Of a DNA stretch of 64,000 bases, positions 9,928 through 64,000 are shown piece after piece (the stretch's first letter is position 1; each line of letters opens with the position of its first letter). Both the position numbers and the translations under genes were made by a program. This stretch comes from Candidatus Eiseniibacteriota bacterium (GTDB lineage Bacteria > Eisenbacteria > RBG-16-71-46 > DASYSL01), in NCBI GenBank assembly GCA_031431875.1, contig JANPEF010000008.1:2284-66283 (forward strand), given 5' to 3'. The notes beneath the pieces are model-generated. The model saw only the letters and a program-made list of their open reading frames with translations. It ran no database searches and was not told where the DNA came from.

Positions 9928-9957
9928 TTGACAATGTGCGTGCGCCGTCCGTAGTCT
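9928..9957 (+). promoter_or_regulatory. sigma70-like promoter candidate upstream of the polysaccharide export operon
   Basis: Perfect -35 TTGACA (9928-9933), 18-nt spacer, then TAGTCT (9952-9957). Lies in a 430-nt intergenic gap ~270 nt upstream of the Wza-like start. Confidence 0.3.
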
Positions 9958-10223
9958 TATGCGGTCGGGGCGTTCCCGGCACATCGTCATTCTCGGAGGA
10001 AACTCAGGCGCACCTTGCGATCGCATCCCGGTTCGGCCCTGCGCAGCACACAGATCGCCCGAACCTGAATCCCTGACAGCTGTCGGCATCCGCCCCATGC
10101 AGGCGGTTGCACGGTCGGGTCACGCAAGCGCCGCCTGGGTGGTTCTTCTCCTGTCCCTGGGTCAAGGCGCCCATCATGCGCGCTCGATCCGGGGATTTTC
10201 GTTTCTATGGGAGGAGAGTCGCC

Positions 10224-11030
10224 GTGACGTGGATGAAGGGCCCGAGTCGCCTGATCGTCGCCAGTGCGGGGCTGTTGCTGCTCGCATTGTGCGCCGGCGG
10301 CGCTGGGGCCAAGACGGTGAAGATCCCGGTCGACCAGTTGCCGCCGCCGCAGCCGACGGCGCCGGAGTCGCTCGCCTACTACGTGGACGAGTTGCCGTAT
10401 CGCATCGCCCCCGGTGACGTTCTTACGGTCGACTTTGGCGCGGTGCTCGACGGCAAGCCGATCCGCAGCGAGGGTGTGCTGGTGCGGCCCGACGGCATGA
10501 TCACGCTGAACCCGATCGGCGATGTGCGGGCGGCGGGTCGCACTCCCGGCGAGCTCGACAGCGTGCTGACCGACGAATACGTGGACGTGTTCCGCCAGCC
10601 GAACATCACGGTCACCGTGTCAAGGCTGGCCGGGAACATGGTGCACGTGCTCGGACAGGTCCGGACACCCGGTTCCTACGAGGTGCTGCCCAATGCGACC
10701 GTGCTGCAGGCGGTGGCGCGGGCGGGCGGGCCGGCGGTCAACGCCTCGATGGGCAGCGTGCTCCTGATGCGTCGCACCGGACCGGCGAGCATGGTGGTGC
10801 GCAAAGTGTCGCTCGATCGGGCGATCCACCTGGCGCAGGCAGCGCAGGACCCCTATGTGCGACGCTTCGACATCATCTACGTGCCGCGGACGACGATCGG
10901 CAACGTCAACCAGTTCGTCGACCAGTTCTTCGGCAGCATCAGCAAGGTCTCGCAGGCGTACATCTTCGGCTGGGAGGCGTTCCACGTGAATCGCGTGTTC
11001 CCCATCTACAACAACGACCCTCTTCCGTGA
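10224..11030 (+). CDS. polysaccharide export outer-membrane protein (Wza/EpsE-like; Poly_export + SLBB)
   Basis: GTG 10224 preceded by GGGAGGAGAG. Signal peptide VTWMKGPSRLIVASAGLLLLALCAGGAGA. Contains …PYRIAPGDVLTVDF… (Poly_export) and …VHVLGQVRTPGSYEV… (SLBB). The ORF-track TTG 10107 start is an upstream extension. Confidence 0.8.
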   Translation: MTWMKGPSRLIVASAGLLLLALCAGGAGAKTVKIPVDQLPPPQPTAPESLAYYVDELPYRIAPGDVLTVDFGAVLDGKPIRSEGVLVRPDGMITLNPIGDVRAAGRTPGELDSVLTDEYVDVFRQPNITVTVSRLAGNMVHVLGQVRTPGSYEVLPNATVLQAVARAGGPAVNASMGSVLLMRRTGPASMVVRKVSLDRAIHLAQAAQDPYVRRFDIIYVPRTTIGNVNQFVDQFFGSISKVSQAYIFGWEAFHVNRVFPIYNNDPLP

Positions 11031-11043
11031 CCGGGACCTCGCC

Positions 11044-12414
11044 ATGAACGAAACGACGACCCTGAAGCACGGCCCCGGCGGCGCCCGCGATTTCCTGGCG
11101 GTGCTGTTCCGCCGTCGTTGGATCATCGGCTCCGTCTTCGCCGTGACCACGATGACCGTGCTGGCGATCAACCTGACCCAGCCGCTCTTCTACGAATCAA
11201 CGGGCAAGGTCATCGTCAAGCGCGGCATGCGCGACAACCTGATCCAGGGCTATGCCCGCTCCATGACATGGGAAGAGGAGCTGGCTTCCGAGGTCGAGAC
11301 CGTGAAGTCGGGTGCGATCATCTCACTGGCCCAGACCTACTACGACGAGCAGTGCAGGGTGAAGCGCCGGCCGACGACGCGGATCGACATCGACCGCGTC
11401 GAGGCGACGGTGGTAGGCGAGTCGAACGTGATCGCCATGTCGTACCAGGATCGCAAGGCCGAAGTCGCGATGGATGTCACGGACGCGGTGATCCATGCCT
11501 ACATGGAGTACCGCAAGAACGAGTACACGCTGAAGTTCCCCAAGGAGTTCTTCGATACCGAGATCGGGCGGACGACCAAGGAACTCGACGAGTGGACCCG
11601 CCGCAAGGAGTCGTACATGGCGTCCACGGGGACGGTCAACTTGCTGGTCGAGGGGGTGTCCGACAAGGACTTCGTCCGCTCGCAGGAGTTGGACCTGACG
11701 GTCGTCGAGCAGGACCTGGCGCAGAAGCGCCAGACCCTGAACGACATCCGGAGCCTGGCCGCGTCCGACGCCTCGGCCGAGATCCCGTTCATGTCGAGCC
11801 TCAACTCGGGCAACGACGTCTCGATCCTCGAGATCAAGAAGAAGTTGAACGAGGCGCGGGTGCGCTACGGCGAGATGGCGACGATCTATGTCCCGAAGTC
11901 GCAGGAACTCGGGCAGATGAAGAACCAGGTCGACCAGCTCGAGTCGATGCTCGCGTCCGAAGTGAAGACGCGCATTCATCTCACCGAGTCCGAGGTGCGT
12001 TCGCTCGAGGCGAAGGCGGGACAGATCCGTCGTTCGATGGCCGAGGGCAAGTCGCGCCTGGCGACGTACCCGGCGCGGACGGCGCGCATGTCGGAAATTG
12101 ACACCCGCATCGCGGCGCTGCAGAAGAACTACACGGACCTCACCGACGCCTCGGCCCAGGCCAAGATCGCCAAGGCCACGTCGCCCGACTGGACCGTCGA
12201 CCTGCTCACGCCGGCTGGCCGGCCGTACGCGAAGAACACGCGCGACTACGTGCGCCTGGCGCTGGCGCCGATCTTCAGCCTGATCGTCGGCCTGGGGCTG
12301 GCGTTCTTCATCGACGGCCTCGACGCGACGCTCAAGAGCCCGCGCGAGACGGAGGAAGCCCTCGAACTGCCCGTCCTGGCGTCCCTGACCGAACACAAGG
12401 AGCGCCGCGCGTGA
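11044..12414 (+). CDS. polysaccharide co-polymerase / chain-length determinant (Wzz/GumC/PCP family)
   Basis: 456 aa. N-terminal TM (…RRWIIGSVFAVTTMTVLAINL…). Long coiled-coil periplasmic region. C-terminal TM (…LALAPIFSLIVGLGLAFFIDGL…). Confidence 0.8.
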   Translation: MNETTTLKHGPGGARDFLAVLFRRRWIIGSVFAVTTMTVLAINLTQPLFYESTGKVIVKRGMRDNLIQGYARSMTWEEELASEVETVKSGAIISLAQTYYDEQCRVKRRPTTRIDIDRVEATVVGESNVIAMSYQDRKAEVAMDVTDAVIHAYMEYRKNEYTLKFPKEFFDTEIGRTTKELDEWTRRKESYMASTGTVNLLVEGVSDKDFVRSQELDLTVVEQDLAQKRQTLNDIRSLAASDASAEIPFMSSLNSGNDVSILEIKKKLNEARVRYGEMATIYVPKSQELGQMKNQVDQLESMLASEVKTRIHLTESEVRSLEAKAGQIRRSMAEGKSRLATYPARTARMSEIDTRIAALQKNYTDLTDASAQAKIAKATSPDWTVDLLTPAGRPYAKNTRDYVRLALAPIFSLIVGLGLAFFIDGLDATLKSPRETEEALELPVLASLTEHKERRA

Positions 12415-13274
12415 GCCGGATTCGTGAGGCCCTGAGCAAGATCGAAGGCGAGGTGCGTCCGCTGGCGCCCGATCCGTACGCGCCCGCGCCGTACCAGGCG
12501 CCGGTGTACACGCCGGATCCCTACGCGGCGGCGAGCTACGACGTCGCGCCCGTGTACGCGCCGGCACCGATCCAGACGGTCGAGGAGGCGCCGCTTCCGG
12601 TCGCACCGACCGCCCCCACGAGCGATGGGCTGCCCGGCATCCCGGCTGACTTCCATCGCGAGCTGTCGGGGCTGCGCTTCACGCTCGAGACCGCGCTGCC
12701 CGATCGCGGTACGCGCGTCGTCCAGTTCGCGGCTGCCGTCGCCGGCGAGGGCACGACCACGGTTGCTGCGACGTTCGCCCGAATCCTGGCGCAGGATCCG
12801 TCGCAGAGCGTGCTGCTGGTTGATGCGAACCTGCGGCACCCGGGCGTGGGCTTGTTCTTCGGCGTGCCGGCGCGGCCCGGCCTGCGCGAGCTGGCCGGCG
12901 CGTCCTCGCTCGACCTCGAATCGTCGCTGGTTGCGGTCGAGCGCTGGAACCTGCACGTGCTGACGGCGCTGCCGGTCTCGGCCGAGCACGGCCAGTTGTT
13001 CCAGGCCGACGCGGTGCGCGACTTCTGGGCCCGGCATGGCCGGCATTATCGCTGGGTGATCATCGACGCGGCGCCGGTGCTCGATGCGCCGGAGACCGCC
13101 ACGCTCGGGACGACCGTCGACACGACGGTGGTGGTGATCCAGGCCGCGCGCACCAAGCGCGGCGTGGTGCAGCGCGCGATGGACGTGTTCGCCAAGGCGG
13201 GGGCGCCGGTGCTCGGCGCCGTGCTCAACCGCCGGCGGCACGACATCCCGGAGTTCATCTATCGCCGGCTCTGA
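12411..13274 (+). CDS. BY-kinase/MinD-like P-loop ATPase domain protein with degenerate Walker A (exopolysaccharide tyrosine-kinase-like)
   Basis: GTG overlapping the PCP stop (GTGA). Walker A' VLLVDANLRHPGVGL and Walker B-like WVIIDAAPVL are present. Walker A reads VAGEGTTTVAATFA, with Lys replaced by Thr. No C-terminal Tyr cluster. N-terminal Pro/Tyr-rich repeats. Confidence 0.7.
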   Translation: MSRIREALSKIEGEVRPLAPDPYAPAPYQAPVYTPDPYAAASYDVAPVYAPAPIQTVEEAPLPVAPTAPTSDGLPGIPADFHRELSGLRFTLETALPDRGTRVVQFAAAVAGEGTTTVAATFARILAQDPSQSVLLVDANLRHPGVGLFFGVPARPGLRELAGASSLDLESSLVAVERWNLHVLTALPVSAEHGQLFQADAVRDFWARHGRHYRWVIIDAAPVLDAPETATLGTTVDTTVVVIQAARTKRGVVQRAMDVFAKAGAPVLGAVLNRRRHDIPEFIYRRL

Positions 13275-13278: not shown

Positions 13279-14571
13279 GTGGCGGCGGGGGAGGTTGCGG
13301 GTCGTCACGCCCTGCGCGACGACGACCACCTCTTCCTCGCGTCGCTGGTCGAGGCGGCGGCGCGCGAGGCGCGCACCCGCCTCGAAGAGGAAGCCGGGCC
13401 GTCGCTCGGTGGAATCCTGGGTGGCAGTCTCGCCCGTGGCGAGGGAACGGTCTGGCGCGACGGCGTGCGGGTGCGCGCGCTGTCCGACCTCGACCTGGCG
13501 ATCGTCTTCGCCGAGCCCGCTGCAGCAGCGCGGGCGCGTGCGATCGCGCCGGCGACGGCGCGCGGGCTGGCCCGACGCCTGAGGGCGCGCGGCCTGCTCG
13601 GACCGGTGGACCTGGGCGTGTACGCGCTGGCTGACCTGCCGCGACAGGGGCCGCGCCCGGGGACGCTCGAGATGCGGCGCTCGGGGCGCGTGCTGTGGGG
13701 TCCGCCGGACCTCCCAGCGCGCTTCCCGGAACTCGCCGAGCAGGACGTGCCGCGCGACGAGGCGCTCGTGCTGCTCGAGAACCGGGGGATCGAGTTGCTC
13801 CACGCGTGGCCGGGTGATGCGCCGGCCGACGACGTGGATCGGCAACTCGTGGGGATGTACGCGGGACTGAAGGCGGTGGTCGATGCGGCGTTCGCGCTGG
13901 TCGTCGCCACCGGCCGGGTTCCCGCGACGCAGCAAGCGAGGCAGGCGGCGTTGGAGATCTTGGCCGTCGAGGGCCGGTCCGAGGCGCTCGACGCCGTCCT
14001 GCCCGACTTCATCGCGGAGGCCGCGTTCTGGGGGCGCATGAAACTCGCGCCGGATCCCGCGGCCATCGCACTTCACCTCGGCGCGCCCGATGTGCGCGAC
14101 CCGGTGGCGCTGGCGCGCCGGGCGTGGCGCGCGGGCGCGCACGCGCATCTTCTGGCCTACCGCGCACTCGGCCTCCACGCCGCTCATCGCGCGCGCCTGC
14201 GTCGCCGCCTCCGCCGTTGGTGGGAGGAGAGTCGGCGCTTCGCCGCATTCGAGCGCGCCGGTCGCGCGCCGTGGTCGCTGCGCCCGTGGCCGGCGCGCGC
14301 CCGGCTCGTCGCGGCCGGCGCGCCAGAACACCAACTCGCGGCGTGCGGTGCGGCGCTGCTGGCCGCCTGGGATGTGCCGGGTGCCGGCGGCGCCGACTGG
14401 CGGGCGGCGATGGAGCATCAATTTCCGGGCGCGCTACCGTCACGCCTCGAGTGGGATCCGTGCCGCACGGCCGTCGTGCGATTGTGGGATGCGATGCACA
14501 TGGGCGGGGTGCGCACCGCCTGGGACGATGATCGGCCGGAAGCGGCCGCAGGAACCTCGGAGGAACCATGA
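13279..14571 (+). CDS. nucleotidyltransferase-fold protein (Pol-beta-like NTase motif), function unknown
   Basis: 430 aa. Contains GGSLARGEGTVWRDGVRVRALSDLDLAIVF, which fits hG[GS]x(9-13)DhDh. Placed between translationally coupled neighbours; stop overlaps the next gene's start (ATGA). Confidence 0.5.
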   Translation: MAAGEVAGRHALRDDDHLFLASLVEAAAREARTRLEEEAGPSLGGILGGSLARGEGTVWRDGVRVRALSDLDLAIVFAEPAAAARARAIAPATARGLARRLRARGLLGPVDLGVYALADLPRQGPRPGTLEMRRSGRVLWGPPDLPARFPELAEQDVPRDEALVLLENRGIELLHAWPGDAPADDVDRQLVGMYAGLKAVVDAAFALVVATGRVPATQQARQAALEILAVEGRSEALDAVLPDFIAEAAFWGRMKLAPDPAAIALHLGAPDVRDPVALARRAWRAGAHAHLLAYRALGLHAAHRARLRRRLRRWWEESRRFAAFERAGRAPWSLRPWPARARLVAAGAPEHQLAACGAALLAAWDVPGAGGADWRAAMEHQFPGALPSRLEWDPCRTAVVRLWDAMHMGGVRTAWDDDRPEAAAGTSEEP

Positions 14572-15776
14572 CCCGCACGCCCCTCGTCGTGCTGGTGCTG
14601 GTGGATGCGCTGGGCTTCGATCGGGTCGGCACCAGCGGCTTTCTCGCCGCCGAACTGCCGCACCGACGGCCACTCGATACCATCCTCGGGTTCTCCGCCG
14701 GCGCGATTCCCGCACTTCTCTCCGGCACCTGGCCCGCCGAGAACGGCCACTGGGTGATGTTCCACCGCGATCCCGCCACCAGCCCCTTCAAGATCGGACG
14801 CCTGCTCGCCGCGCTGCCCGCGCGGGCGCGCAACTCGTGGAAGGTGCGGCAGTGGGTGAAGGCGCGCGCGAAGGGCAACGTCGGGGGCTACTTCGACCTC
14901 TACGACGTGCCATGGGCCGAACTCGCCGAACTCGACGTGTGTGAGCGGGCGAACCTGTACGCCCCCGGTGGGCTGGGCCCGATCGGGACGTGGTTCGACG
15001 ACTTCGCGGAACGCCGGCTCGGGGTTCGCGTGTGGGACTGGCGCAGCGACGACGCCACGAACGAGCGCGAGTTCGTCGCGGCCATCGAGGCGGCGGCCCA
15101 GGATCCCGCCGGGCAGCCCGACGTGCTGTTCTGGTACACGCCTTCGGTCGACGCGCTGATGCACGCGCACGGCGTCCACGCTGCGCCGGTGATCGACCGC
15201 CTGGCCCGGCTCGAGGCGGCGATCGCGCGCGCGCTCGCCGCTGTGCGCGCCCATGGGCGCGAGGTGTGGCTGTACCTTTGTTCGGATCATGGGATGGCGG
15301 ACGTCAGGTTCCACGTCGACGTGATGGCGAGAGTCGCCGCGACGGGCCTTTCGGCCCGTCGCGATTATCACGCGTTCTACGACTCGACGATGGCGCGCTT
15401 CTGGTTCGCGAGCCCGCTCGCGGAGGCGCAGGTTCAGCGGGCCCTCGCGGGCCTGCCCGGACGCTTCCTGACGCCCGCCGACGAGGAGCGCTGGGGCATC
15501 CACTTCGCCGATCGGCGCTACGGTGAGGCGATCTGGCTGGTCGACGAGGGCGGACTGATCGTGCCGTCGTACATGGGCAAGCACGGCGTCGCCGCGATGC
15601 ACGGCTACGATCCGGCGACGAGCGCGTCGCAGGCCGTGTTCCTCTCCAACCGACCGCTGCCCGCGGGGCTCGCCCACGTCGTCGATGTCCGCGCGTTCCT
15701 GGCGGGCGAACTCGACGCCCGCGCCGCGCTGGCCGCGCCCGGCGCGGAACGCAGCATGGCGGGGGCGCGGGCATGA
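14568..15776 (+). CDS. alkaline-phosphatase-superfamily nucleotide pyrophosphatase/phosphodiesterase-like enzyme
   Basis: 402 aa. Metal-ligand motifs LVDALGFD (N-terminal) and LCSDHGM (type I phosphodiesterase/NPP signature). Confidence 0.7.
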   Translation: MTRTPLVVLVLVDALGFDRVGTSGFLAAELPHRRPLDTILGFSAGAIPALLSGTWPAENGHWVMFHRDPATSPFKIGRLLAALPARARNSWKVRQWVKARAKGNVGGYFDLYDVPWAELAELDVCERANLYAPGGLGPIGTWFDDFAERRLGVRVWDWRSDDATNEREFVAAIEAAAQDPAGQPDVLFWYTPSVDALMHAHGVHAAPVIDRLARLEAAIARALAAVRAHGREVWLYLCSDHGMADVRFHVDVMARVAATGLSARRDYHAFYDSTMARFWFASPLAEAQVQRALAGLPGRFLTPADEERWGIHFADRRYGEAIWLVDEGGLIVPSYMGKHGVAAMHGYDPATSASQAVFLSNRPLPAGLAHVVDVRAFLAGELDARAALAAPGAERSMAGARA

Positions 15777-17392
15777 GCCAGATGCTCAAGAACGTGGGGC
15801 GGGGCTCGTTCTACCTCACGCTCGAGAGCCTCACCGTCGTCGTCTCGGGACTGCTCTACTCGATCGTCGTGCTGCGCTGGCTGGGGCCGGGCTGGTTCGG
15901 TATCCTCTCGCTCGCGCTGTCGATCGTGGGGCTGGCCTCGGTCGCCACCGGCAACTTCGAGATCTACCTCGAGCGCCATGCCGCCGAGTTCGAGACGCGC
16001 GGGCAGTACCTGCGCCTGCTGCGCGCGCACCTGTGGGCGCTCGCGCTCAAGGCGGTCCTCGGCTTCCTCGCCGGCTATGCGCTGCTCCAGCTCGCGCCGT
16101 GGATCGAGCGGCAGTACGGTTTCGAGAAGCTGGGGCTGCTCGTCTCGCTGCTCGTCTCGCTCGTCGTCTTCGACGGCTTCGGCGCGACCGGCCGGGCCAC
16201 GTTGTACGGGCTCCAGCAGTACACGTGGATCGCGGCACTCACGCTGCTGCAGCACGTGCTCAAGCTGGCGGCGGTCATCGTGCTGTGGCAGACCGGGCGC
16301 GGACCCACCTCGCTGGCGCTCACCATCTCGGGGCTCGCCGTGCTGCACGGGGCCCTGGCCGGCGGCATCGCGTTCGCCGTCGCATGGGGACGGGCCACCA
16401 CGGCGCGGCGCGACGGCACCGACACCTCGCCCGAGGAGACGCCGTCGGCGATCCTCGCCGACATCTTCCGCTACTGCCTGCCGCTGCTCGGTGCGCGGGC
16501 GGCCTTCATCTCCGGGCAGAACCTGTCGCGTGTCGTCCTCGGCAAGTTCTTCCCGGCCGAGGCGCTCGGCCTCTTCTCCTTCGCCTTCCAGACGGTCGAG
16601 CGCTTCGTCGGCTTGGTCTACGCGATCCCGTCGTCGCTGCTGCCGTCGCTGACGCAGCTCGTCGCCCGCGGCGAGCCCGAGCGCCTGCGCCGCCTGCTCG
16701 ACAAGAGTTTCCGCCTGATCGCCACGCTGGCCTGCGCGCTGTCGTTCGGCGTGTTCGTCTTCGCCGAGGAGATCACGCGCCTGCTCGGCGGCGAGCGCTA
16801 CCTGCCCGCGGTCGGACTGCTGCGCATCCTCGCCCTGGTGCCCTGGGTGCGGACCGCGCACCAGCCGTTGACCATGGGCTTCTACGCCCTGCGCAAGACC
16901 GGGACCGTGCTGGCGATCGCGGTGGCCAAGTTCCTGACCGAGATGGGGAGCTACTTCCTGCTCATCCCGGTGCTCGGCCTGTCGGGGGCGGCGTGGGCAA
17001 ACCTCGCCGGCGCCGTGGTCGCCTTCGCCGGCGCGCACGCCGCGATGAGCGGGCACCTCGCCGACGGCGGACGTCACCGCCGTACCGTGATGCTCAAGTC
17101 GGGGCTGCTGGTCGTGATCGGCGCGGCCGCCGCACTGGCGCTCCACTCCCTGGTCTGGGACTGGCGCCTCGTCTTCGCCGTCAAGCTCGTCGGGCTCGTG
17201 CCCGCGCTCGCGCTCGGTGTCGTGCTGCTCGACCTGGTGACGCACGACGACCTGGCCCGCGCCCAGGCCGTCGAGCTGCGCGTGCCGTGGATGTCCGCGG
17301 TGCGCGACCGCGTCGTCGGGCTGGCGCTGGCCGCCGACCGAGCCATCGGCCGCCGCCGCCCCGATGCGCTGGCCACGACCGAGGGCCACTGA
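15773..17392 (+). CDS. Wzx-like oligo/polysaccharide flippase (MOP superfamily)
   Basis: 539 aa, ~12-14 predicted TM helices. ATGA overlap with the upstream stop. Confidence 0.8.
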   Translation: MSQMLKNVGRGSFYLTLESLTVVVSGLLYSIVVLRWLGPGWFGILSLALSIVGLASVATGNFEIYLERHAAEFETRGQYLRLLRAHLWALALKAVLGFLAGYALLQLAPWIERQYGFEKLGLLVSLLVSLVVFDGFGATGRATLYGLQQYTWIAALTLLQHVLKLAAVIVLWQTGRGPTSLALTISGLAVLHGALAGGIAFAVAWGRATTARRDGTDTSPEETPSAILADIFRYCLPLLGARAAFISGQNLSRVVLGKFFPAEALGLFSFAFQTVERFVGLVYAIPSSLLPSLTQLVARGEPERLRRLLDKSFRLIATLACALSFGVFVFAEEITRLLGGERYLPAVGLLRILALVPWVRTAHQPLTMGFYALRKTGTVLAIAVAKFLTEMGSYFLLIPVLGLSGAAWANLAGAVVAFAGAHAAMSGHLADGGRHRRTVMLKSGLLVVIGAAAALALHSLVWDWRLVFAVKLVGLVPALALGVVLLDLVTHDDLARAQAVELRVPWMSAVRDRVVGLALAADRAIGRRRPDALATTEGH

Positions 17393-18113: not shown

Positions 18114-18475
18114 CCCGCCCGCAGTTGCTGGCCGCCTTGCTCACGGTCGGTCTTGCCGTGGGCGTGGTCGAGCTGGTGCGCCGCCGCCGGCTGTCCGAGG
18201 AGTACTCGCTGCTGGCGCTCGTCGCCATGGCCGGCGTGCTCGTCGTCGCGTTCTGGACGAGCGGCGTGACGACCTTCACGCACTGGTTCGGCGCGCTCTA
18301 CGAGACGTCGGTCATCTTCTTCTTCGGGCTCGTGTTCGTGATGGTGGCGCTCGTCTACTATGCGGTGAAGCTGACCCGGCTGACGCAGGAGGTGCGGCGG
18401 CTGGCGCAGGAGAGCGCGCTGCTTCGGCTCAAGCTCGAGCGTGCCGAGCGGCGCGACGGGGAGGGCGGACGATGA
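18110..18475 (+). CDS. small DUF2304-like membrane protein (GT2 partner)
   Basis: 121 aa. GTG overlaps the GT2 stop. Three TM helices (…LLTVGLAVGVVELV…LLALVAMAGVLVVAFW…VIFFFGLVFVMVALVYY…) plus a C-terminal amphipathic/coiled tail. Confidence 0.6.
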   Translation: MTRPQLLAALLTVGLAVGVVELVRRRRLSEEYSLLALVAMAGVLVVAFWTSGVTTFTHWFGALYETSVIFFFGLVFVMVALVYYAVKLTRLTQEVRRLAQESALLRLKLERAERRDGEGGR

Positions 18476-45985: not shown

Positions 45986-45987
45986 GC

Positions 45988-57780: not shown

Positions 57781-57813
57781 CCGTGCGGGGCCCGGCCCGC
57801 GCGTGAGGAGCGC

Positions 57814-59373
57814 GTGGACCAAACTCTCGGCAGCAGCCAACCCAGCGGAATGCAGGCCCCGCCGCAAGGGCGTCGGGGCCTTTGGCTTGCCCTGATCGCC
57901 GCGGCGATCCTGCGCTTCTACCATCTCGGCACCCAGAGCCTGTGGATCGACGAGATCTTCACCTGGCAGACGGCCTCGCCGACCGCGCCGCTGACCTGGC
58001 TCGACATCGTCTCCAACCTGCATGGCCCGCTCGTCTCCGTGTTCGCGCACTTCTGGATGCGCGCCTTCGGCGAGTCGGAGTTCATCCTGCGCCTGCCCAT
58101 GGCGGTGGCCTCGATCGCACTCGTTCCCGTCGTCGCGGGGCTGGCGCGCCGCGCCGTCGGGCCCGCGGCGTCCCTGCCGGCGGCGTGGCTCGTCGCACTC
58201 TCCCCGTTCGTCACCTGGTACGGGCAGGAGTTCCGCGGCTACATCTTTGCCATACTCTTTGCCGCGCTCGCGCTGTCGGCGCTCTTCGACTGGCGGGGGA
58301 GCGGCATGCGCCGCGACTTCGTCGCGCTCGTCGCGTGGACCGTCCTCGCCACCTGGTCGAACATGAGCGGCGTGCTGCTCGTGCCCGTGTTCGCCGGTGC
58401 CCTGCTGCTGGCGCGCCCGCCGGGCCGCGGTCGCTTCGCGCCGACGCTGCTTTTCCTCGGATGCGTCGGGCTCGCCCTTTCCCCGTGGATCGCCTACCAC
58501 TTCGTCCAGCGCATGGGCTGGCTCGAGTGGGGGCGGCTGGTGCCGGGGCGCCCGCCCGAGGCCGCGGGGGCGCCGCTGCGCGGGGAGCTCACGTTCTCGT
58601 GGCTCGGCATCCCGTTCACGTTCTACGTCTTCGCGGTGGGCTACACGCTGGGCCCGAGCCTGCGCGACCTGCGCTCGGGCGGCGGGCTCGACGTCCTCGT
58701 GCCGTTCCTGCCCGGCATCCTCGCCGCGCTGCTGACCTTCGGCACGCTGGCGGTGGTCGGCGTGGTCGCGCTGGCGGATCGCGCGCGGAGATTCGAGCGC
58801 GGCGTGATCCTCGGGGCGATCCTCGTGCCGATCGCCGTCGTGTCGTACTTTGCACTGTCGAACTTCAAGGTGTTCAACCCGCGCTACGTCGCGATCGGCG
58901 CGCCGGCGTTCTTTGTGCTGCTCGCCGCCGGCTTCACCGCCCTGTCACCGCTGGCCCGGCGGCTCACCGCCCTGGCCGTGCTCGGGTTGTTCACCCTCTC
59001 GCTCTTGCACCACTATCACGGAGCGCGTTACGCGAAGGACGACTTCAAGCGCGCCGTGCACGCGCTCGAGCTGGTGGTCGCTCCGCAGGACGTGATCATC
59101 GCGGCCGGCAACTTCTCGCCGCTCGAGTTCTACTGGCGCGACCACGAACCGACGCCGGTCGTGTACTGGGCGGGGTACGCGCGGGACGCGCGGATGGAGG
59201 AGAAGTTCCTGCCCCTGCGCAACCCGGCCGGAGCGACCTGGCTGGTCGTCTCGCGGACGCAGGAACTCGACCCCGAGGGGCGCCTCGAGCGCTGGGTTCA
59301 AGCCACGTGGGGCGCGCCGATCGGGGTCTTTCCGGGGGTGCGCGTTTATCGGATCGCCGCTCCGGTGCGCTAG
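57814..59373 (+). CDS. GT39/GT83 (ArnT/PMT_2)-like polytopic membrane glycosyltransferase
   Basis: 519 aa. First-loop motif …YHLGTQSLWIDEIFTWQTA…, the DE motif of PMT/ArnT-type GT-C enzymes. ~11 TM helices. An alternative start ATG lies at 57850. Confidence 0.8.
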   Translation: MDQTLGSSQPSGMQAPPQGRRGLWLALIAAAILRFYHLGTQSLWIDEIFTWQTASPTAPLTWLDIVSNLHGPLVSVFAHFWMRAFGESEFILRLPMAVASIALVPVVAGLARRAVGPAASLPAAWLVALSPFVTWYGQEFRGYIFAILFAALALSALFDWRGSGMRRDFVALVAWTVLATWSNMSGVLLVPVFAGALLLARPPGRGRFAPTLLFLGCVGLALSPWIAYHFVQRMGWLEWGRLVPGRPPEAAGAPLRGELTFSWLGIPFTFYVFAVGYTLGPSLRDLRSGGGLDVLVPFLPGILAALLTFGTLAVVGVVALADRARRFERGVILGAILVPIAVVSYFALSNFKVFNPRYVAIGAPAFFVLLAAGFTALSPLARRLTALAVLGLFTLSLLHHYHGARYAKDDFKRAVHALELVVAPQDVIIAAGNFSPLEFYWRDHEPTPVVYWAGYARDARMEEKFLPLRNPAGATWLVVSRTQELDPEGRLERWVQATWGAPIGVFPGVRVYRIAAPVR

Positions 59374-60286: not shown

Positions 60287-62398
60287 GCTATGGCCCCCGA
60301 ACAACATCCGCCCACACCCACGCCCGCTCGCGGGCGGGAGGGTTCGCTCGCCTGGAAGCTCCAGCGCCTGCGCTCCATGTCGCCCGCCGAAGTGGCGTGG
60401 CGCGTCGAGCGGCGGCTCGCGCTCAGGCGGCTGGCGCGTCGCGCCGGGGCGCCCGTGCCCACGCTGCCGACGCCCGGTGCAGGCTTCCGTGCGACGCTCG
60501 TTGCCGCCACCGTCCCGCTCGTGCCGTGGGCGGGCGACAACGGGATCGCGAGTGAGGCCGAGCGCGCGGCATTCGAGCAGGCCTATCCGGGCGAGGCCGC
60601 CCGCATCGTCGCGTCGGCCGAGGCGATCCTCGTCGGACGCATCGAGCTGTTCGCGCGGACCTATGCCTTCGGGCCCGATCCGCGAGCGTGGCCGTGGAAT
60701 CGCAGCGCCGACGACGGGCCGCCAGTCCCGCTCGACTTCGGGCCGACGCTCGATTATCGCGAGCCGGCCGTGGTGGGGGACGCGCGCCTCGCCTGGGAGC
60801 TGGGTCGGCACGGTTGCCTCGCGCCGCTGGCGCAGGCCGCGTGGCTGACCGGGGATCCCCGCTACGCCCGCTTCGCCTTCGCCGTGATCGAGGCGTGGAG
60901 CGAAGCGTGCCCGCCGTATCGCGGGATTCAGTGGGTGAGCGCGCTCGAGTTCGCGATCCGTTCGCTCGCGTGGGGCTTTGCACTCGCCGTCGTGGCCCGC
61001 AGTGTCGCCGGTGCGGAGATCGACGAGACGCGCTGGGAGCGCGTGCTCGCCACGTGGGCCGAGCAGTTGCGCTTCGTGCACGCGCACGACGCGCGCTTCT
61101 CCTCGGCGAACAACCATCGCCTCGGCGAGGCGGCCGGGCTGGCGTGGGGTGGGATCGCGCTGTCGTTCCTGCCCGAGGGCGACCTGTGGCGGCGCCGCGG
61201 TTTCGACGTGCTCGAGGAGTGCGTGCTCGCCCAGACGACCGACGACGGCGTCACCCGCGAGCACGCGTTCGCCTACCAGCACTTCGTCCTCGACTTCGCG
61301 GTTGCGGTCGAGGCGGCCGGCGAACGCACCGGGCGGGCCATGCCGGCGGCCGTGCGGTCGCGCCTGGCCGCGGTCGCATCGTCGCTCGAGCGCTTTGCGC
61401 CGGGCGGAAGGCTGTGGTCGGTGGGCGACGGCGACGAGGGGCAGGCGCTGGCGCTGGGCGATCCGTTCGCGACGCGCGTCACGGCGAGCCTCGAGACGGC
61501 CCGGGCCCTGGTCGGGGACACCGGGCACGGCGCGAATCATCCGCGCTCGTTCTGGCTGGGTCTTTCGCCGCGGGCCGCTAACGATTCCACCGACGCGGCC
61601 GGCGCTTTCGCGCCGGACCTGGGCGTCACGCAGCGCGGCGGCTACGTGCTCGACGCGTGGGACACGCCAGGCGGCGCGGCGCGCCTGCTCTTCGACGTCG
61701 CCGAGATGGGTCTCGCACCGCTGTACGCGCACGGGCATGCCGACGCGCTCCAGGTCCTGCTCGACGTCGCCGGGCCGCGGCTCGTCGATCCGGGCACCGG
61801 CGCGTACCACGCCCGGCCCGAATTGCGCGAGTGGCTGCGCTCGACCGCGGCCCACAACACGCTCGAGCTCGAGGGCAAGTCGCAGTCCGAGCCGGGCGGC
61901 CTGTTCCAGTGGTTGCGCGTGGCGCGCGTGACGGAGATCGCCGTCGCAGACGGCGCAGCCCTCGATGCATCGGCTGCGCATGATGGCTACGCGAAGGACG
62001 ACGGCCTCCTGCACCGCCGGCGCGTGTGGCGCGGGAGCCCGACCGTGGTGCACGTGACCGACACGCTCGAGGCGGCCGGAGCAGGCGGCACGGGCGGGGG
62101 CGCGATGCGGCGCGCCGTTGTCCGCTGGCACGTCGGTGAAGGACGGCCGCGGGTCACCGCGCCGGATCGCGTCGAGGTGACGTGGCCGGACGGATATGTG
62201 CTGGCGCTGTGCGTCGTCTCATCGCCCGCGGGCGTGCGGGCGCGCATTGCCGAAGACGGCATGTGGGCACCCCGGTTCCTCGAGCCGCGGGCCTGCGGCG
62301 TCGTCGAATGGATCGTCGAAACGGCCGCCGGCTGCACGATCGAGACCGTGATCGTGCTCGGTGGTGCTGACTTCTCGTTCACGGCCGCATCGTCGTGA
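60287..62398 (+). CDS. heparinase II/III-like protein (alginate-lyase/heparinase superfamily)
   Basis: ~700 aa. Start approximate: TTG 60236, TTG 60281 (GGAGGA RBS 8 nt upstream) or ATG 60287. …HGCLAPLAQAAWLTGDPRYARFAFAVIEAWSEACP…NNHRLGEAAGLAWGGIA… resembles the N-terminal (α/α)-toroid. β-rich C-terminus. Such proteins often accompany UDP-sugar dehydrogenases in polysaccharide loci. Confidence 0.7.
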   Translation, partial: AMAPEQHPPTPTPARGREGSLAWKLQRLRSMSPAEVAWRVERRLALRRLARRAGAPVPTLPTPGAGFRATLVAATVPLVPWAGDNGIASEAERAAFEQAYPGEAARIVASAEAILVGRIELFARTYAFGPDPRAWPWNRSADDGPPVPLDFGPTLDYREPAVVGDARLAWELGRHGCLAPLAQAAWLTGDPRYARFAFAVIEAWSEACPPYRGIQWVSALEFAIRSLAWGFALAVVARSVAGAEIDETRWERVLATWAEQLRFVHAHDARFSSANNHRLGEAAGLAWGGIALSFLPEGDLWRRRGFDVLEECVLAQTTDDGVTREHAFAYQHFVLDFAVAVEAAGERTGRAMPAAVRSRLAAVASSLERFAPGGRLWSVGDGDEGQALALGDPFATRVTASLETARALVGDTGHGANHPRSFWLGLSPRAANDSTDAAGAFAPDLGVTQRGGYVLDAWDTPGGAARLLFDVAEMGLAPLYAHGHADALQVLLDVAGPRLVDPGTGAYHARPELREWLRSTAAHNTLELEGKSQSEPGGLFQWLRVARVTEIAVADGAALDASAAHDGYAKDDGLLHRRRVWRGSPTVVHVTDTLEAAGAGGTGGGAMRRAVVRWHVGEGRPRVTAPDRVEVTWPDGYVLALCVVSSPAGVRARIAEDGMWAPRFLEPRACGVVEWIVETAAGCTIETVIVLGGADFSFTAASS

Positions 62399-62424
62399 CG
62401 GCACTCCTTCCCCCCGGAGAGCGC

Positions 62425-63747
62425 ATGCGCATCGCAGTCTTCGGCCTCGGCTACGTCGGTTCGGTGACTTCGGCCTGCCTGGCGAAGCTCGGCCACGACG
62501 TCGTCGGCGTCGATCCCAACGAGTACAAGGTCGGTTGCCTCGCCCGTGGCGAGAGCCCGATCGTCGAGAAGGACCTGGGTGACCTGATCGCCGAGGCCGC
62601 ACGCGCGGGCCGGCTCACGGCTACCACCGATTTCGTCGCGGCGGTCAAGGGCGTCGACCTCGTGCTGGTGTGCGTCGGCACCCCGAGCCGCGAGGACGGA
62701 TCGCTCGACCTGTCGCACGTCGAGCACGCGGCGGGCGAGGTGGGGGCCGCACTCGCCGCGCAACCGCACTTCGCGACCGTCGTGTTCCGCAGCACCATGC
62801 TGCCGGGCTCGGTCGAGGAGCGCCTGGTGCCGCGCCTCGAGCAGGCCTCGGGCGGTAAGCGCGGGAAGGACTTCGGCGTCTGCTACAACCCCGAGTTCCT
62901 GCGCGAGGGCACCGCCGTCGCCGACTTCTTCGCCCCGCCGATCACCGTGCTCGGTGTCGGCGACGAGGCGAGTGCCGTGCCCATGCGCGCGCTCTATGCG
63001 CCGCTGCCGGGCGAGCTGGCGGTCGTCCCGATCCGCACCGCCGAGATGCTCAAGTACGTGAACAACGCGTTCCACGGGCTCAAGGTCGCGTTCGCCAACG
63101 AGGTCGGCGTGCTGTGCAAGCGCGAGGGTGTCGATTCGCACGAGGTAATGCGCCTGTTCTGCGCCGACACGAAGCTCAACCTGTCGCCGTACTACCTGAA
63201 GCCCGGGTTCGCCTTCGGCGGTTCGTGCCTGCCCAAGGACCTGCGCGCCATCACGCACCGCGCGCGCGAGCGGAGCCTCGACCTGCCCGTGCTCGACTCG
63301 GTGTTGCGCTCGAACGACCTGCACGTGCAGCGCGCGGTCGCCGCGGTCGAGAGGGCAAAGGCGCCGGGCCGCAAGGTCGGCATCCTCGGCCTGTCGTTCA
63401 AGGCCGAGACCGACGACCTGCGCGAGAGCCCGATCGTCCGCGTCGTCGGCGCTCTCGTCGGCAAGGGCTGGACGCTGGCGCTGCACGATGCGCACATCGA
63501 CGCGGCGAAGCTGGTCGGCGCCAACCGCCAGTACCTCGAGGCCGAGATTCCGTACCTCGATCGCCTGTTCCACAAGGACCCGCGCGACGTGGTGCGCGGC
63601 TCCGAGGTGATCGTCATCGCGAACGGACATCCGGCCTACCGCGAGGTGCCGCAGTGGATGACGGAGGGCCAGACGCTGGTCGACCTGGTGCACCTGGTCG
63701 ATGCCAGGTCCGTGACGCGCGGGGAGTATGTCGGCCTCGCCTGGTGA
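62425..63747 (+). CDS. nucleotide-sugar 6-dehydrogenase (UDP-glucose/GDP-mannose dehydrogenase family)
   Basis: MRIAVFGLGYVGSVTSACLAKLGHDVVGVD (NAD Rossmann). Catalytic Cys motif …GFAFGGSCLPKD…. C-terminal UDP-binding domain. The ORF-track start 62395 overlaps the upstream stop; ATG 62425 has a GGAGAG RBS. Confidence 0.9.
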   Translation: MRIAVFGLGYVGSVTSACLAKLGHDVVGVDPNEYKVGCLARGESPIVEKDLGDLIAEAARAGRLTATTDFVAAVKGVDLVLVCVGTPSREDGSLDLSHVEHAAGEVGAALAAQPHFATVVFRSTMLPGSVEERLVPRLEQASGGKRGKDFGVCYNPEFLREGTAVADFFAPPITVLGVGDEASAVPMRALYAPLPGELAVVPIRTAEMLKYVNNAFHGLKVAFANEVGVLCKREGVDSHEVMRLFCADTKLNLSPYYLKPGFAFGGSCLPKDLRAITHRARERSLDLPVLDSVLRSNDLHVQRAVAAVERAKAPGRKVGILGLSFKAETDDLRESPIVRVVGALVGKGWTLALHDAHIDAAKLVGANRQYLEAEIPYLDRLFHKDPRDVVRGSEVIVIANGHPAYREVPQWMTEGQTLVDLVHLVDARSVTRGEYVGLAW

Positions 63748-64000
63748 GCGCGCGGGCGGCCGCGTCCTCATCCTCGTCGAAAACCTTCCAGTGCCGTTCG
63801 ACCGCCGGGTCTGGCTCGAATCGAAGGCGCTGACCCGCGCCGGCTGGCTGGTCTCGGTGATCTGCCCCAAGGGCGAACCGTGGACGGCCGAGTACGAAGA
63901 GATCGAGGGCGTCCACATCCACCGCTACGAGCCGCCGCCGCCCGCGAAGGGCGCGTTGTCGTACGTGTGGGAGTTCCTCTACTGCTGGCTGCAGACCCTG
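63728..64000 (+). CDS. GT4 glycosyltransferase, 5' fragment (continues beyond window)
   Basis: Open frame from ATG 63728 to the window edge: MSASPGERAGGRVLILVENLPVPFDRRVWLESKALTRAGWLVSVICPKGEPW…. This is a typical N-terminus of EPS-locus GT4 sugar transferases. Overlaps the dehydrogenase 3' end by 20 nt. Confidence 0.55.
   Translation, partial: MSASPGERAGGRVLILVENLPVPFDRRVWLESKALTRAGWLVSVICPKGEPWTAEYEEIEGVHIHRYEPPPPAKGALSYVWEFLYCWLQTL

Follow-up and report, generated by a model that had tools for sequence, protein, structure and literature searches.

We interpret the region from position 10224 to the end of the 64,000-nucleotide stretch analysed here (hereafter the window) as a native locus for a cell-envelope polysaccharide in an uncultured Candidatus Eisenbacteria bacterium, rather than an exosortase system, with a probability of roughly 0.6. 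With about the same confidence, it appears to be a Wzx/Wzy-type locus that carries additional lipid-linked sugar decoration modules. Sugar-modifying enzymes known chiefly from exosortase loci are redeployed here alongside unannotated membrane glycosyltransferases in place of an exosortase, which makes the locus of interest to glycobiology. It is not a new kind of system, as the same toolkit without an exosortase is already in the literature.

Gene calling by third-position GC bias yielded 42 genes between 10224 and 64000 (Table 1), one of them cut by the window end and two (g37 and g48) doubtful, packed closely into five strand blocks at a coding density of 94.8%. Glycan-related assignments were obtained for 39 of the 42; an earlier note on this DNA had proposed approximately 45 glycan genes. 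Housekeeping genes bound the cluster on both sides: the segment before 9.8 kb encodes RbfA, TruB, RibF, S15, PNPase, an M16 peptidase, an aminotransferase and a DUF3108 protein, while a 95%-identical relative carries the cluster on for 7.9 kb beyond the window end, as far as a gene for a small membrane protein and another that reads as an M48-type peptidase. The intervening segment of this relative contains only glycosyltransferases; past g51 the cluster of the relatives runs on through four more genes of GT4 type and two of GT2-like type to its end (genes d1 to d7 were annotated in relative L004, and L010 keeps the same order). The whole locus, at about 62 kb, is unusually large. The label "island" given to it earlier is a misnomer because its GC content is even, no tRNA was found and no integrase family was matched in the window, and its synteny is kept across Eisenbacteria.

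Table 1. Genes of the polysaccharide cluster with window coordinates and the basis of each assignment (scores in bits)
Gene	Family or predicted product	Position	Strand	Basis
g10	Wza/OPX-like outer-membrane polysaccharide export protein	10224..11030	+	Pfam Poly_export, SLBB
g11	Chain-length-determinant (PCP)-like, one TM segment per end (residues 26 and 402)	11044..12414	+	NCBIfam, TM; no Pfam match
g12	BY-kinase-like P-loop protein	12411..13274	+	TIGR03018 88.8 (cutoff 230.65)
g13	430-aa protein of unknown family	13279..14571	+	Gene call in three Logan contigs; no Pfam or NCBIfam match
g14	Phosphodiesterase/nucleotide pyrophosphatase family	14568..15776	+	Pfam PF01663
g15	MOP-family flippase (Wzx-like)	15773..17392	+	Pfam Polysacc_synt, Polysacc_synt_3, MurJ
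g16	GT2, polyprenyl-phosphate sugar synthase-like	17394..18113	+	Pfam PF00535; top NCBIfam PpgS 105.8, under cutoff
g17	Small DUF2304 membrane protein	18110..18475	+	Pfam PF10066
g18	LPG_synthase_TM-family membrane protein	18472..19479	+	Pfam PF03706
g19	DegT-family sugar aminotransferase	19597..20814	-	Pfam DegT 395; top NCBIfam the 4-aminotransferases PseC 362, ArnB 357, both under cutoff
g20	NAD-dependent sugar epimerase/dehydratase	20811..21785	-	Pfam Epimerase 146.7
g21	Second MOP-family flippase	22025..23545	+	Pfam Polysacc_synt, Polysacc_synt_3
g22	730-aa, 13-TM protein, predicted GT-C fold	23538..25730	+	g42 paralogue (29% identity across 575 aa); no Pfam or NCBIfam match
g23	864-aa GT-C-fold membrane glycosyltransferase, C-terminal beta-rich domains	25727..28321	+	AF2 model, Foldseek; no Pfam or NCBIfam match
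g24	GT4 glycosyltransferase	28369..29448	+	Pfam Glycos_transf_1 135.8
g25	AsnB-type glutamine amidotransferase, WbpS/eps_aminotran_1-like	29450..31417	+	NCBIfam, Pfam; TIGR01536 486, above cutoff
g26	Two tandem GT4 modules	31533..33812	+	Glyco_trans_1_4 and Glycos_transf_1, two stretches each
g27	PaaK/F390-synthetase-like adenylate-forming ligase	33809..35281	+	Pfam AMP-binding 36; NCBIfam DVU_1553 family 114.6, under cutoff
g28	Zinc-ADH-type dehydrogenase::GFO/IDH/MocA oxidoreductase fusion	35278..37494	+	Pfam ADH_zinc_N, GFO_IDH_MocA
g29	Second AsnB-type amidotransferase	37504..39423	+	TIGR01536 461.8, above cutoff; this start gives N-terminal MCGICGG nucleophile
g30	GT4 glycosyltransferase	39420..40535	+	Pfam, NCBIfam
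g31	486-aa multi-TM protein, possible membrane glycosyltransferase	40532..41992	+	Sole match NCBIfam NF047440 (LA_3751/LA_3752 putative glycosyltransferase) 23, weak
g32	SAM-dependent methyltransferase	41989..42675	-	Pfam Methyltransf_11 77.6
g33	GT2 with C-terminal TM pair, ArnC/PgfS-like polyprenyl-phosphate glycosyltransferase	42695..43660	-	Pfam; NCBIfam PgfS 195, ArnC 156, both under cutoff
g34	GT-C glycosyltransferase (PMT_2)	43657..45090	-	Pfam PF13231 43.3, above gathering score
g35	SDR/epimerase-family NAD-binding protein	45095..45991	-	Pfam Epimerase, NAD_binding_10
g36	GMC-family FAD oxidoreductase	45988..47595	-	Pfam GMC_oxred_C 29.4
g38	Hexapeptide-repeat acyltransferase	48026..48547	-	Pfam Hexapep; NCBIfam WcaF/WbbJ-like
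g39	Small DUF2304 membrane protein	48544..48960	-	Pfam PF10066 78.7
g40	CE4 polysaccharide deacetylase + DUF3473, VimE/XrtA-type	48974..49843	-	Pfam Polysacc_deac_1, DUF3473
g41	GT2, polyprenyl-phosphate sugar synthase-like	49840..50619	-	Pfam; NCBIfam PpgS 83.8
g42	692-aa GT-C-fold membrane glycosyltransferase	50655..52733	-	AF2 model, Foldseek
g43	FemAB-like (VimA/TIGR03019-like) acyl or aminoacyl transferase	52730..53743	-	Pfam Acetyltransf_6, FemAB
g44	Wzy_C-family membrane protein (polymerase or ligase)	53740..55323	-	Pfam PF04932 51.5
g45	GT2, dolichyl/polyprenyl-phosphate hexose transferase-like	55328..56005	-	Pfam; NCBIfam AglJ 126.7, Dol-P-hexose transferase 116, both under cutoff
g46	Initiating polyprenyl-phosphate glycosylphosphotransferase	56860..57780 (start may be 56665)	+	Pfam Bac_transf 212
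g47	GT-C glycosyltransferase (PMT_2)	57850..59373	+	Pfam PF13231; NCBIfam Agl23 and mannosyltransferase, weak
g49	Heparinase II/III-like protein	60392..62398	+	Pfam Hepar_II_III_N, Hepar_II_III_C
g50	Nucleotide-sugar 6-dehydrogenase	62425..63747	+	TIGR03026 391.6 (cutoff 189.8), above cutoff; Pfam UDPG_MGDP_dh N-terminal, central and C-terminal domains
g51	5' part of GT4 gene	63791..64000	+	95.7% identical to start of L004 gene d1

Every component on which the earlier note had based a likeness to exosortase loci is present, namely g10, g11, g12, the amidotransferases g25 and g29, the deacetylase g40 with its DIEDW motif (the protein begins MTAQPASLTFDIEDWYHPE), g43 and g44. The top NCBIfam match is an XrtA/PEP-CTERM-locus model for g12 and for g10 (TIGR03027, 82.8 bits against a cutoff of 180), g25 (TIGR03108, 584.7 against 816.9, with the whole length aligned), g40 (TIGR03006, 226 against 276.2) and g43 (TIGR03019, 255.3 against 260.35, also full-length and the nearest to its cutoff of all the models). 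In g11 such a model is a close second in a near-tie (TIGR03017, 74.4 bits; TIGR03007, 70.9 bits with a cutoff of 278.85; both far under cutoff), g44 matches TIGR03097 at noise level (17.6 against 188.1), and g46 is closest to the generic TIGR03025 (282.2 against 295.55), with the XrtA-type TIGR03013 well behind at 157 bits. The note had held that scores below cutoff for all PEP-CTERM-locus models, with best matches to generic families instead, would speak against it; the former was found, yet the XrtA-locus models are still the best for five proteins. As judged from these profile scores, the resemblance to exosortase loci is real but weak. The kinase-like g12 has the Walker A sequence GEGTTT, with Thr in place of Lys, and a search for a C-terminal tyrosine cluster found none, suggesting that it is probably not an active autokinase.

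No exosortase was recovered from the window, either by Pfam and NCBIfam models among its multi-TM proteins or by two real exosortase seeds against its six-frame ORFs; an uncalled gene is unlikely to be hidden in the cluster because the longest non-coding gap, at 854 nt, is too short. A PEP-CTERM regular expression, which retrieves each of the three PEP-CTERM proteins annotated on the D. vulgaris plasmid pDV as positive controls, gave 0 matches in the window and none in 1.07 Mb of related loci. Likewise, no exosortase was seen among 80 multi-TM ORFs of these 82 related loci, and neither an exosortase nor a PEP-CTERM tail occurs in the 8.9 kb past the window end in the 95%-identical relative. 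Nor does the window encode any of the XrtA-specific partners (TIGR03015 ATPase, TIGR03016 outer-membrane protein, EpsI). A TIGR03015-like "XrtA-associated" ATPase is present in other Eisenbacteria EPS loci. Thus, the absence of exosortase and PEP-CTERM signals reported in the earlier note is upheld, whereas its suggestion that the sorting machinery lies just outside is disfavoured, because the relative's cluster ends without an exosortase after a run of glycosyltransferases, housekeeping genes fill the 10 kb on the left, and the XrtA partners are missing. The other option that it raised, a toolkit operating without exosortase, is favoured but not novel, having been described as the Wbp/Vim pathway. 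Of the locus families, EpsH is the only one without homologues in genomes that are PEP-CTERM-negative, the accessory families not being PEP-CTERM-specific (Haft 2006; PMC1569441), and the FemAB-like, CE4 and AsnB trio constitutes the Vim/WbpS sugar-modification pathway, which occurs in exosortase-free species, with VimE (CE4), VimA (TIGR03019-like) and WbpS (TIGR03108-like) building an aminoacyl uronamide sugar (Veith 2020; PMC7468200).

The excess of membrane glycosyltransferases noted earlier is borne out by five supported GT-C proteins, of which g22, g23 and g42 were recognized through structure and paralogy and g34 and g47 through the PMT_2 domain, with g31 as a weakly matched sixth candidate in which no relation to the g42 family was found. 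To these are added four polyprenyl-phosphate-type GT2 enzymes (g16, g33, g41 and g45; g41 and g16 are 47% identical). High-confidence AlphaFold models of g42 (pLDDT 92, pTM 0.93) and g23 (pLDDT 91.2) suggest that both families match GT-C glycosyltransferases: Foldseek retrieved STT3 (9e-9), DPY19, AftA, PglB and ArnT for g42 (E 9e-9 to 7e-5 for all except DPY19), and AftA (1e-8), STT3 (about 1e-8), DPY19, AglB and PglB for g23, with TM-scores of only 0.4 to 0.56. The g23 protein is homologous to the g42 family (hhalign probability 99.2%). The g42 family, which has no Pfam or NCBIfam coverage, comprises 71 members that are all unnamed or labelled hypothetical, and the few with an organism name are from Eisenbacteria; across the g22/g42 and g23 families the sole exception to the lack of a model is DUF6541 in 3 of 46 relatives. 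Fusions join a GT2 domain to a g42-type protein (P0156) and an AsnB domain to a g23-type protein (P0235).

A module comprising Wzy_C, AsnB, FemAB-like and Hexapep proteins, a membrane protein of about 690 aa, CE4+DUF3473, two GT4 enzymes, a further AsnB and a membrane protein of about 850 aa is found again on a 558-kb and a 460-kb contig, both likewise of Eisenbacteria type, in which no Exosortase_EpsH match lies within 10 kb on either side of it. Pfam leaves its two membrane-protein families all but uncovered. On balance, the genetic partners of the tailoring set in Eisenbacteria appear to be two GT-C families, unannotated and related to each other, and not an exosortase. The g38 homologue adjoins the FemAB-like gene in loci L086 and L088; g38 itself resembles an O-acetyltransferase.

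By analogy with known pathways, we infer the substrates, reaction order and acceptor in a scheme of three layers. In the first, g46 would initiate a backbone that about ten cytoplasmic GT4/GT2 glycosyltransferases extend, with g15 and g21 as flippases, g44 as Wzy_C polymerase or ligase, and g10, g11 and the degenerate kinase-like g12 as the export trio. In the second, comprising periplasmic decoration modules, a GT2 enzyme (g16, g33, g41 or g45) would load a sugar onto polyprenyl phosphate, assisted by a small DUF2304 or LPG_synthase_TM membrane protein, and a GT-C protein (g22, g23, g34, g42, g47 and perhaps g31) would move it to the growing glycan outside the cytoplasm. In the third, Vim/XrtA-type tailoring would follow the chemistry proposed for the Wbp/Vim pathway: g40 would take off an N-acetyl group, g43 or the hexapeptide acyltransferase g38 would re-acylate or aminoacylate the freed amine, and g25 and g29 would amidate a uronic acid made via g50. 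Three observations count against this explanation: the persistence of XrtA-locus models as top matches for g10, g12, g25, g40 and g43, with g43 only 5 bits short; the Wbp part of the pathway, which is not clearly present, g19 matching 4-aminotransferases and g38 being O-acetyltransferase-like; and the TIGR03015-like ATPase of other Eisenbacteria EPS loci.

The same top matches and ATPase, together with an order of export, chain-length and kinase genes as in the canonical loci L089 and L091, would fit a genuine XrtA/PEP-CTERM system with exosortase and substrates encoded elsewhere in the genome and the glycan serving as attachment or matrix partner. We consider this unlikely, since EpsH almost always lies within the EPS locus (PMC1569441), and here neither the window, the right flank nor the 82 related loci contain an exosortase. 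Moreover, every score is below its curated cutoff, PEP-CTERM tails are lacking from the 1.07 Mb of related loci, the three XrtA partners are missing from the window, and PGAP calls the Eisenbacteria homologues only "GNAT family N-acetyltransferase".

Eisenbacteria are commonly assigned to the FCB group. It is conceivable, if distinctly unlikely, that an anionic polysaccharide receives from the Vim-like enzymes an aminoacyl "linking sugar", to which another sorting enzyme, such as a PorU-type sortase of type IX secretion, attaches secreted proteins. Eisenbacteria conserve g40, g43 and g25 as a trio, and in P. gingivalis this is just what the homologues VimE, VimA and WbpS accomplish, VimA matching TIGR03019 (PMC7468200); against this, the full WbpA/B/E/D set is not clearly present, inspection of the window and the examined loci, without a T9SS-specific search, revealed no T9SS component or T9SS C-terminal-domain protein, and we found no paper connecting Eisenbacteria with T9SS. 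The presence of STT3, PglB and AglB among the top Foldseek matches of g42 and g23 might instead point to oligosaccharyltransferases and a general protein-glycosylation system. This appears very improbable, given that g22, g23 and g42 have no WWDxG motif, AftA, ArnT and DPY19 score as well, the TM-scores are low, and the Wza, PCP and Wzy_C context argues for a polysaccharide product.

The reading that we prefer, a polysaccharide locus with decoration modules, combines features of four known systems. With the XrtA/PEP-CTERM EPS loci defined by Haft 2006 (D. vulgaris Hildenborough pDV, L089; Vibrio alfacsensis plasmid, L091) it shares the export, chain-length and kinase-like trio in the same order, as well as CE4+DUF3473, FemAB-like, AsnB-type, Wzy_C-like, flippase and GT4 proteins. 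It differs from them in lacking the exosortase, EpsI, PEP-CTERM proteins, TIGR03015, TIGR03016 and PrsK/R/T-type regulators, in its below-cutoff accessory scores and generic rather than TIGR03013-type initiator, and in that GT-C enzymes hold the position of XrtA. The Wbp/Vim pathway of Porphyromonas gingivalis and Tannerella forsythia (PMC7468200), likened here by enzyme type, has the corresponding VimE, VimA and WbpS, and in both the trio stands alongside GT4 enzymes, a WbaP-type initiator and a nucleotide-sugar dehydrogenase. Here, however, the WbpB/E/D set is not clearly identifiable and no T9SS is in view, while the GT-C coupling is not described for Vim. Decoration by polyprenyl-phosphate sugars and GT-C enzymes is typified by ArnC/ArnD/ArnT, mycobacterial PpgS/Rv3632/Rv3779 and Gtr. 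The likeness lies in GT2 enzymes matching PpgS, ArnC or AglJ, in adjoining DUF2304 proteins and in GT-C transferases; further, the CE4 gene adjoins a GT2 gene, as ArnD does, and the g42 family includes a GT2::GT-C fusion. The matches here, in contrast, are all below equivalog cutoffs, the g22/g42 and g23 families lack models save for DUF6541, and to our knowledge such systems do not include FemAB-like or AsnB partners. Finally, the phosphoglycosyl transferase, Wzx-type flippases, Wzy_C protein, Wza-like exporter and PCP-like protein are those of Wzx/Wzy-dependent capsule/EPS loci with OPX, PCP and BY-kinase, from which this locus departs in a g12 devoid of the Walker A lysine and tyrosine cluster, in its extent and in its five or six GT-C genes.

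The polysaccharide cluster of the window (g10-g51) belongs to a known kind of polysaccharide locus, of which it is a variant without an exosortase, and its chief interest lies in the conserved coupling of tailoring enzymes of the Vim/XrtA type to two related, unannotated families of GT-C membrane proteins. Gene calling by third-position GC bias yields 51 genes in the window, which is about 70% G+C and returned no match in an Rfam search. The first nine genes are of a housekeeping character, coding for RbfA, TruB, RibF, ribosomal protein S15, PNPase, an M16 peptidase, an aminotransferase, a DUF3108 protein and one unknown protein, and they are followed by the 42 genes of the cluster, which have a coding density of 94.8% and a widest gap of 854 nt at a divergent promoter region. 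The right flank was read from L004, a 95%-identical relative, in place of the source contig. This locus shares 95.4% identity with the end of the window and runs 8.9 kb beyond it, where g51, the gene cut by the window (d1 in L004), is followed by four more GT4 and two GT2-like genes, and then, at the edge of the cluster, by a small membrane protein and a gene which, from a reading of the sequence only, resembles an M48-type peptidase. The gene order of L004 is kept in the related locus L010, in which the Ugd homologue shares 77% identity with g50. The cluster thus spans about 62 kb with housekeeping genes at both ends.

A protein from a Candidatus Eisenbacteria MAG shares 99% identity with the nucleotide-sugar dehydrogenase g50, and Eisenbacteria are the source of most of the best 80 loci; among the fetched loci, homologues of g49 occur in 25 and those of d1 in 56. 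The even GC content, taken together with the conserved synteny, shows the locus to be native and not a mobile island. The earlier note had described an island of more than 54 kb, and this part of its description is abandoned here: horizontal acquisition is rejected on the even GC, the lack of any tRNA gene in the window, the lack of an integrase family match, and the synteny kept in relatives.

Features of the window and of related loci, with their coordinates
Feature	Sequence	Coordinates	Strand	Description
g1-g9	window	1-9791		housekeeping genes
g10-g51	window	10224 to window end		polysaccharide cluster
Block 1, g10-g18	window		+	
Block 2, g19, g20	window		-	
Block 3, g21-g31	window		+	
Block 4, g32-g45	window		-	
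Block 5, g46-g51	window		+	
g12	window	12411-13274		kinase-like protein of the export trio
g13	window	13279-14571		430-aa protein in the export operon
g26	window	31533-33812		two complete GT4 modules on one polypeptide; unusual architecture
g28	window	35278-37494		zinc-ADH-type dehydrogenase fused to GFO/IDH/MocA oxidoreductase; unusual architecture
g33-g36	window	42695-47595		adjoining polyprenyl-phosphate GT2, PMT_2 GT-C, SDR and GMC flavoprotein
Segment shared with L004	window	54760-64000		
g48 interval	window	59370-60391	g48 antisense	100-aa NYN-domain fragment between g47 and g49, then 719 nt with no convincing gene
Conserved block	window	60392-63747		heparinase II/III-like, nucleotide-sugar dehydrogenase and GT4 genes
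ATPase	L079	1363-2793		TIGR03015-like
g12 homologue	L079	2844-3593		
Plasmid locus (L090)	NZ_CP018096.1	74365-115363		Chelatococcus daeguensis plasmid pTAD1

An XrtA/PEP-CTERM system was taken to comprise an exosortase (EpsH/XrtA) matching TIGR02602, TIGR03109 or PF09721, normally within the EPS locus, together with at least three proteins whose C-terminus is a PEP-CTERM signal (TIGR02595). The multi-TM proteins of the window showed no match to the exosortase models, phmmer searches of the window with two genuine exosortases as seeds returned nothing, no gap between the genes of the cluster is wider than 854 nt, and the right flank of L004 contains no exosortase. The 82 GC-rich related loci, 1.07 Mb in all, contain 80 multi-TM ORFs, 50 of which are homologous to window proteins, while the remaining 30 match 14 Pfam families that do not include Exosortase_EpsH. 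A regular expression for the PEP-CTERM signal, applied to all six-frame ORFs, found none in the window and none in the related Eisenbacteria loci; on D. vulgaris pDV (L089), fetched as a canonical XrtA control along with a Vibrio alfacsensis plasmid (L091), it recovered all three annotated PEP-CTERM proteins. The models, seeds and controlled pattern search therefore bear out the earlier observation that the 64 kb hold neither an exosortase nor a PEP-CTERM tail. The other XrtA partners, namely EpsI, the TIGR03015 ATPase and the TIGR03016 outer-membrane protein, were likewise not found in the window by phmmer with the D. vulgaris copies, and the ATPase seed matches only other loci (L066, L067, L072 and L079). 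In these four, all located around a dehydrogenase homologue and belonging to Eisenbacteria MAGs (L066, L079) or to unclassified sources (L067, L072), the protein named "XrtA/PEP-CTERM system-associated ATPase" reaches 193 bits, where the cutoff is 324.5; in L079 it lies between the chain-length and kinase-like genes, and no exosortase was found near it in any of them.

The scores of the accessory proteins are given in the table of scores below. For several window proteins an XrtA/PEP-CTERM-locus model is the best NCBIfam match and yet below its cutoff, and none of the seven exceeds the curated threshold. For the chain-length protein g11 the EpsF model is slightly ahead (74.4), the initiating transferase g46 matches the generic TIGR03025 with 282 bits vs 157 bits for the XrtA-type TIGR03013, and the GT4 enzymes match the 'stp' models at a generic level only. 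The earlier note had seen an exosortase-locus toolkit here and had proposed this very NCBIfam comparison; its outcome upholds a weak resemblance of several proteins to the XrtA-locus families but not their membership by the curated cutoffs.

Scores of accessory proteins against curated NCBIfam models of XrtA loci
Protein	Model	Score	Cutoff
g10	TIGR03027	82.8	180
g11	TIGR03007	70.9	278.85
g12	TIGR03018	88.8	230.65
g25	TIGR03108	584.7	816.9
g40	TIGR03006	226	276.2
g43	TIGR03019	255.3	260.35
g44	TIGR03097	17.6	188.1

Three of these proteins make up a tailoring trio, defined as a VimE-like CE4 protein, a TIGR03019-like VimA and a TIGR03108-like WbpS, and represented by g40, g43 and g25, respectively, with best and full-length matches in each case; their homologues are also clustered in the related loci L086 and L088. 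PDB sequence searches gave generic CE4 matches only for g40 and nothing useful for g43, which has 4962 relatives at E < 1e-20, those from Eisenbacteria being named by PGAP only as 'GNAT family N-acetyltransferase'. The link to the Vim proteins rests on the TIGR models, with the equivalence of VimA to TIGR03019 and of WbpS to TIGR03108 taken from PMC7468200. The P. gingivalis Wbp/Vim pathway uses VimE to take off the acetyl group at C-2, VimA to attach serine or glycine and WbpS to form the uronamide, and homologues of all three occur both in XrtA loci and in exosortase-free species (PMC7468200); only EpsH has no homologues in PEP-CTERM-negative genomes (Haft 2006, PMC1569441). That the accessory enzymes are widely distributed glycan-tailoring enzymes explains how a cluster can bear exosortase hallmarks with no exosortase, and it is this alternative of the earlier note, a toolkit used without the sorting enzyme, that is favoured. 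The deacetylase and FemAB protein of the plasmid locus of Chelatococcus daeguensis, named by PGAP as XrtA-type, constitute a further case, from a proteobacterium, of the toolkit with no adjacent exosortase: none is annotated within 20 kb on either side, and the exosortase seeds had no phmmer match there. Candidates for the WbpA/B/E/D enzymes, which make the 2,3-diacetamido uronic acid, are the dehydrogenase g50, g28 with its GFO/IDH/MocA domain, g19 and g38. A complete Wbp pathway composed of these four is unsupported by the best matches of g19, which are the 4-aminotransferases PseC and ArnB, and of g38, which is O-acetyltransferase-like.

The backbone machinery forms a Wzx/Wzy set with an initiating phosphoglycosyl transferase (Bac_transf, 212 bits), flippases (Polysacc_synt in g15 and g21) and a Wzy-family protein, g44, which matches Wzy_C above the gathering score (51.5 bits) and is either polymerase or ligase. 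In the export trio the OPX domains are present, the PCP matches are sub-threshold, and the BY-kinase-like g12 lacks both the Walker A lysine and the C-terminal tyrosine cluster. Its Walker A motif reads GEGTTT and that of its Eisenbacteria homologue in L079 GAGTST, as against GEGKT in genuine XrtA kinases, and its Walker A' reads VDANLR instead of VDADLR; to judge from these motifs, g12 is probably a pseudo-kinase or scaffold. The neighbouring g13 is conserved in three Logan contigs and had no match in Pfam and NCBIfam searches, and a nucleotidyltransferase-like GS...DLD motif can be discerned in it by eye. The antisense fragment g48, also called in Logan contigs, is possibly the relic of a nuclease or toxin gene. 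Few parts of the cluster are conserved as widely in the fetched loci as the heparinase-containing block that follows it, which is also present in L010 and L079.

Four GT2 proteins (g16, g33, g41 and g45) have as best matches the polyprenyl- or dolichyl-phosphate glycosyltransferases PpgS, AglJ, Dol-P-hexose transferase, PgfS and ArnC. Of these, g16 is followed by a DUF2304 protein (g17) and an LPG_synthase_TM protein (g18); g41 is preceded by the GT-C g42 and the FemAB-like g43 and followed by the CE4 protein g40, a DUF2304 protein (g39) and a hexapeptide acyltransferase (g38); and g33 is grouped with the GT-C g34, an SDR (g35), a GMC flavoprotein (g36) and a methyltransferase (g32). Such groupings resemble the Arn system and the mycobacterial system of PpgS, Rv3632 and Rv3779. 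By analogy of gene order, g33-g36 recall DprE1/DprE2-type lipid-linked sugar epimerisation ahead of GT-C transfer, though this is speculation.

Proteins were assigned to the GT-C superfamily if their membrane fold was of this type or if they matched one of its family models. For g34 and g47 the assignment comes from PMT_2 scores that exceed the gathering threshold, while g22, g23, g31 and g42 are without a Pfam match, the same holding for NCBIfam apart from a weak match of g31; PDB sequence searches with g23 and g42 were also negative. AlphaFold (AF2) models of g42 (pLDDT 92, pTM 0.93) and g23 (pLDDT 91, pTM 0.91) retrieved STT3, DPY19, AftA, PglB, AglB and ArnT in Foldseek with probability 1.0 and E-values of 1e-8 to 1e-4, and g22 is included by paralogy to g42. 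The surplus of membrane glycosyltransferases that had been noted earlier is thereby confirmed, with at least five GT-C enzymes in the cluster; g31, which did not resemble the g42 family in a profile comparison, may be a sixth. For the g42 family 71 members could be detected, all of about 680 aa and unnamed or labelled hypothetical, the few with an organism name being from Eisenbacteria; the g23 family has 46, three of which carry DUF6541. An hhalign comparison shows the two families to be homologous (99.2%, E 1e-19), and they share invariant Asp/His positions that align across both, D150 and H154 in g42 with D156, D159 and H160 in g23. Oligosaccharyltransferases of the STT3/PglB/AglB kind, defined by a WWDxG motif in the C-terminal periplasmic domain, are rejected as an identity for g22, g23 and g42, which have neither WWD nor WWDxG. 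A 924-aa relative of g42 (P0156) has a GT2 domain fused to the GT-C, and a 1502-aa relative of g23 (P0235) has AsnB amidotransferase domains fused to it; such natural fusions imply functional coupling.

On the whole, we infer a pathway, including its substrates, reaction order and acceptor, in which the polymer would be built and exported by a Wzx/Wzy-type route, several modules of polyprenyl-phosphate-sugar and GT-C enzymes would add decoration outside the cytoplasm, and the tailoring chemistry would be as in the Wbp/Vim pathway of P. gingivalis. An exosortase, or a T9SS, may be encoded elsewhere in the genome; no paper linking Eisenbacteria to exosortase or type IX secretion was found. The conserved module recovered on contigs of 558 kb and 460 kb runs Wzy_C, AsnB, FemAB-like, hexapeptide acyltransferase, a protein of about 690 aa, CE4+DUF3473, GT4, GT4, AsnB, and a protein of about 850 aa, the two sized proteins having no Pfam match, and no exosortase lies within 10 kb on either side. 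The accessory genes alone, it should be cautioned, do not justify inferring an exosortase system.

The FemAB-like, CE4+DUF3473 and AsnB-type families carry the label 'XrtA/PEP-CTERM system-associated', but what reactions they perform is known only for the Vim enzymes of P. gingivalis; a phylum with the trio, no exosortase in the locus and the GT-C coupling offers an independent setting for learning their roles, and the two GT-C families, each represented to date by a few dozen sequence clusters from metagenomes, have been missed by current family databases. Canonical XrtA loci run deacetylase, FemAB, GT, XrtA, amidotransferase, whereas in the Eisenbacteria module a large membrane protein takes the place held there by XrtA. 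That g42 or g23 is for this reason a divergent exosortase is rejected, since both models are predicted GT-C folds. A bolder reading, to which we give roughly one chance in five, is that in Eisenbacteria the trio is hard-wired to a lineage-centred, unannotated GT-C clade, a link to which the conserved adjacency and the AsnB::GT-C and GT2::GT-C fusions lend support. An aminoacylated or amidated sugar would then be assembled on polyprenyl phosphate and added to the glycan outside the cytoplasm by a GT-C of its own, and the coupling would represent a third, sortase-independent context of the toolkit, beside the exosortase loci and the Vim pathway of the T9SS. Alternatively, the coupled set could be the glycan half of an unrecognised protein-anchoring system in this phylum.
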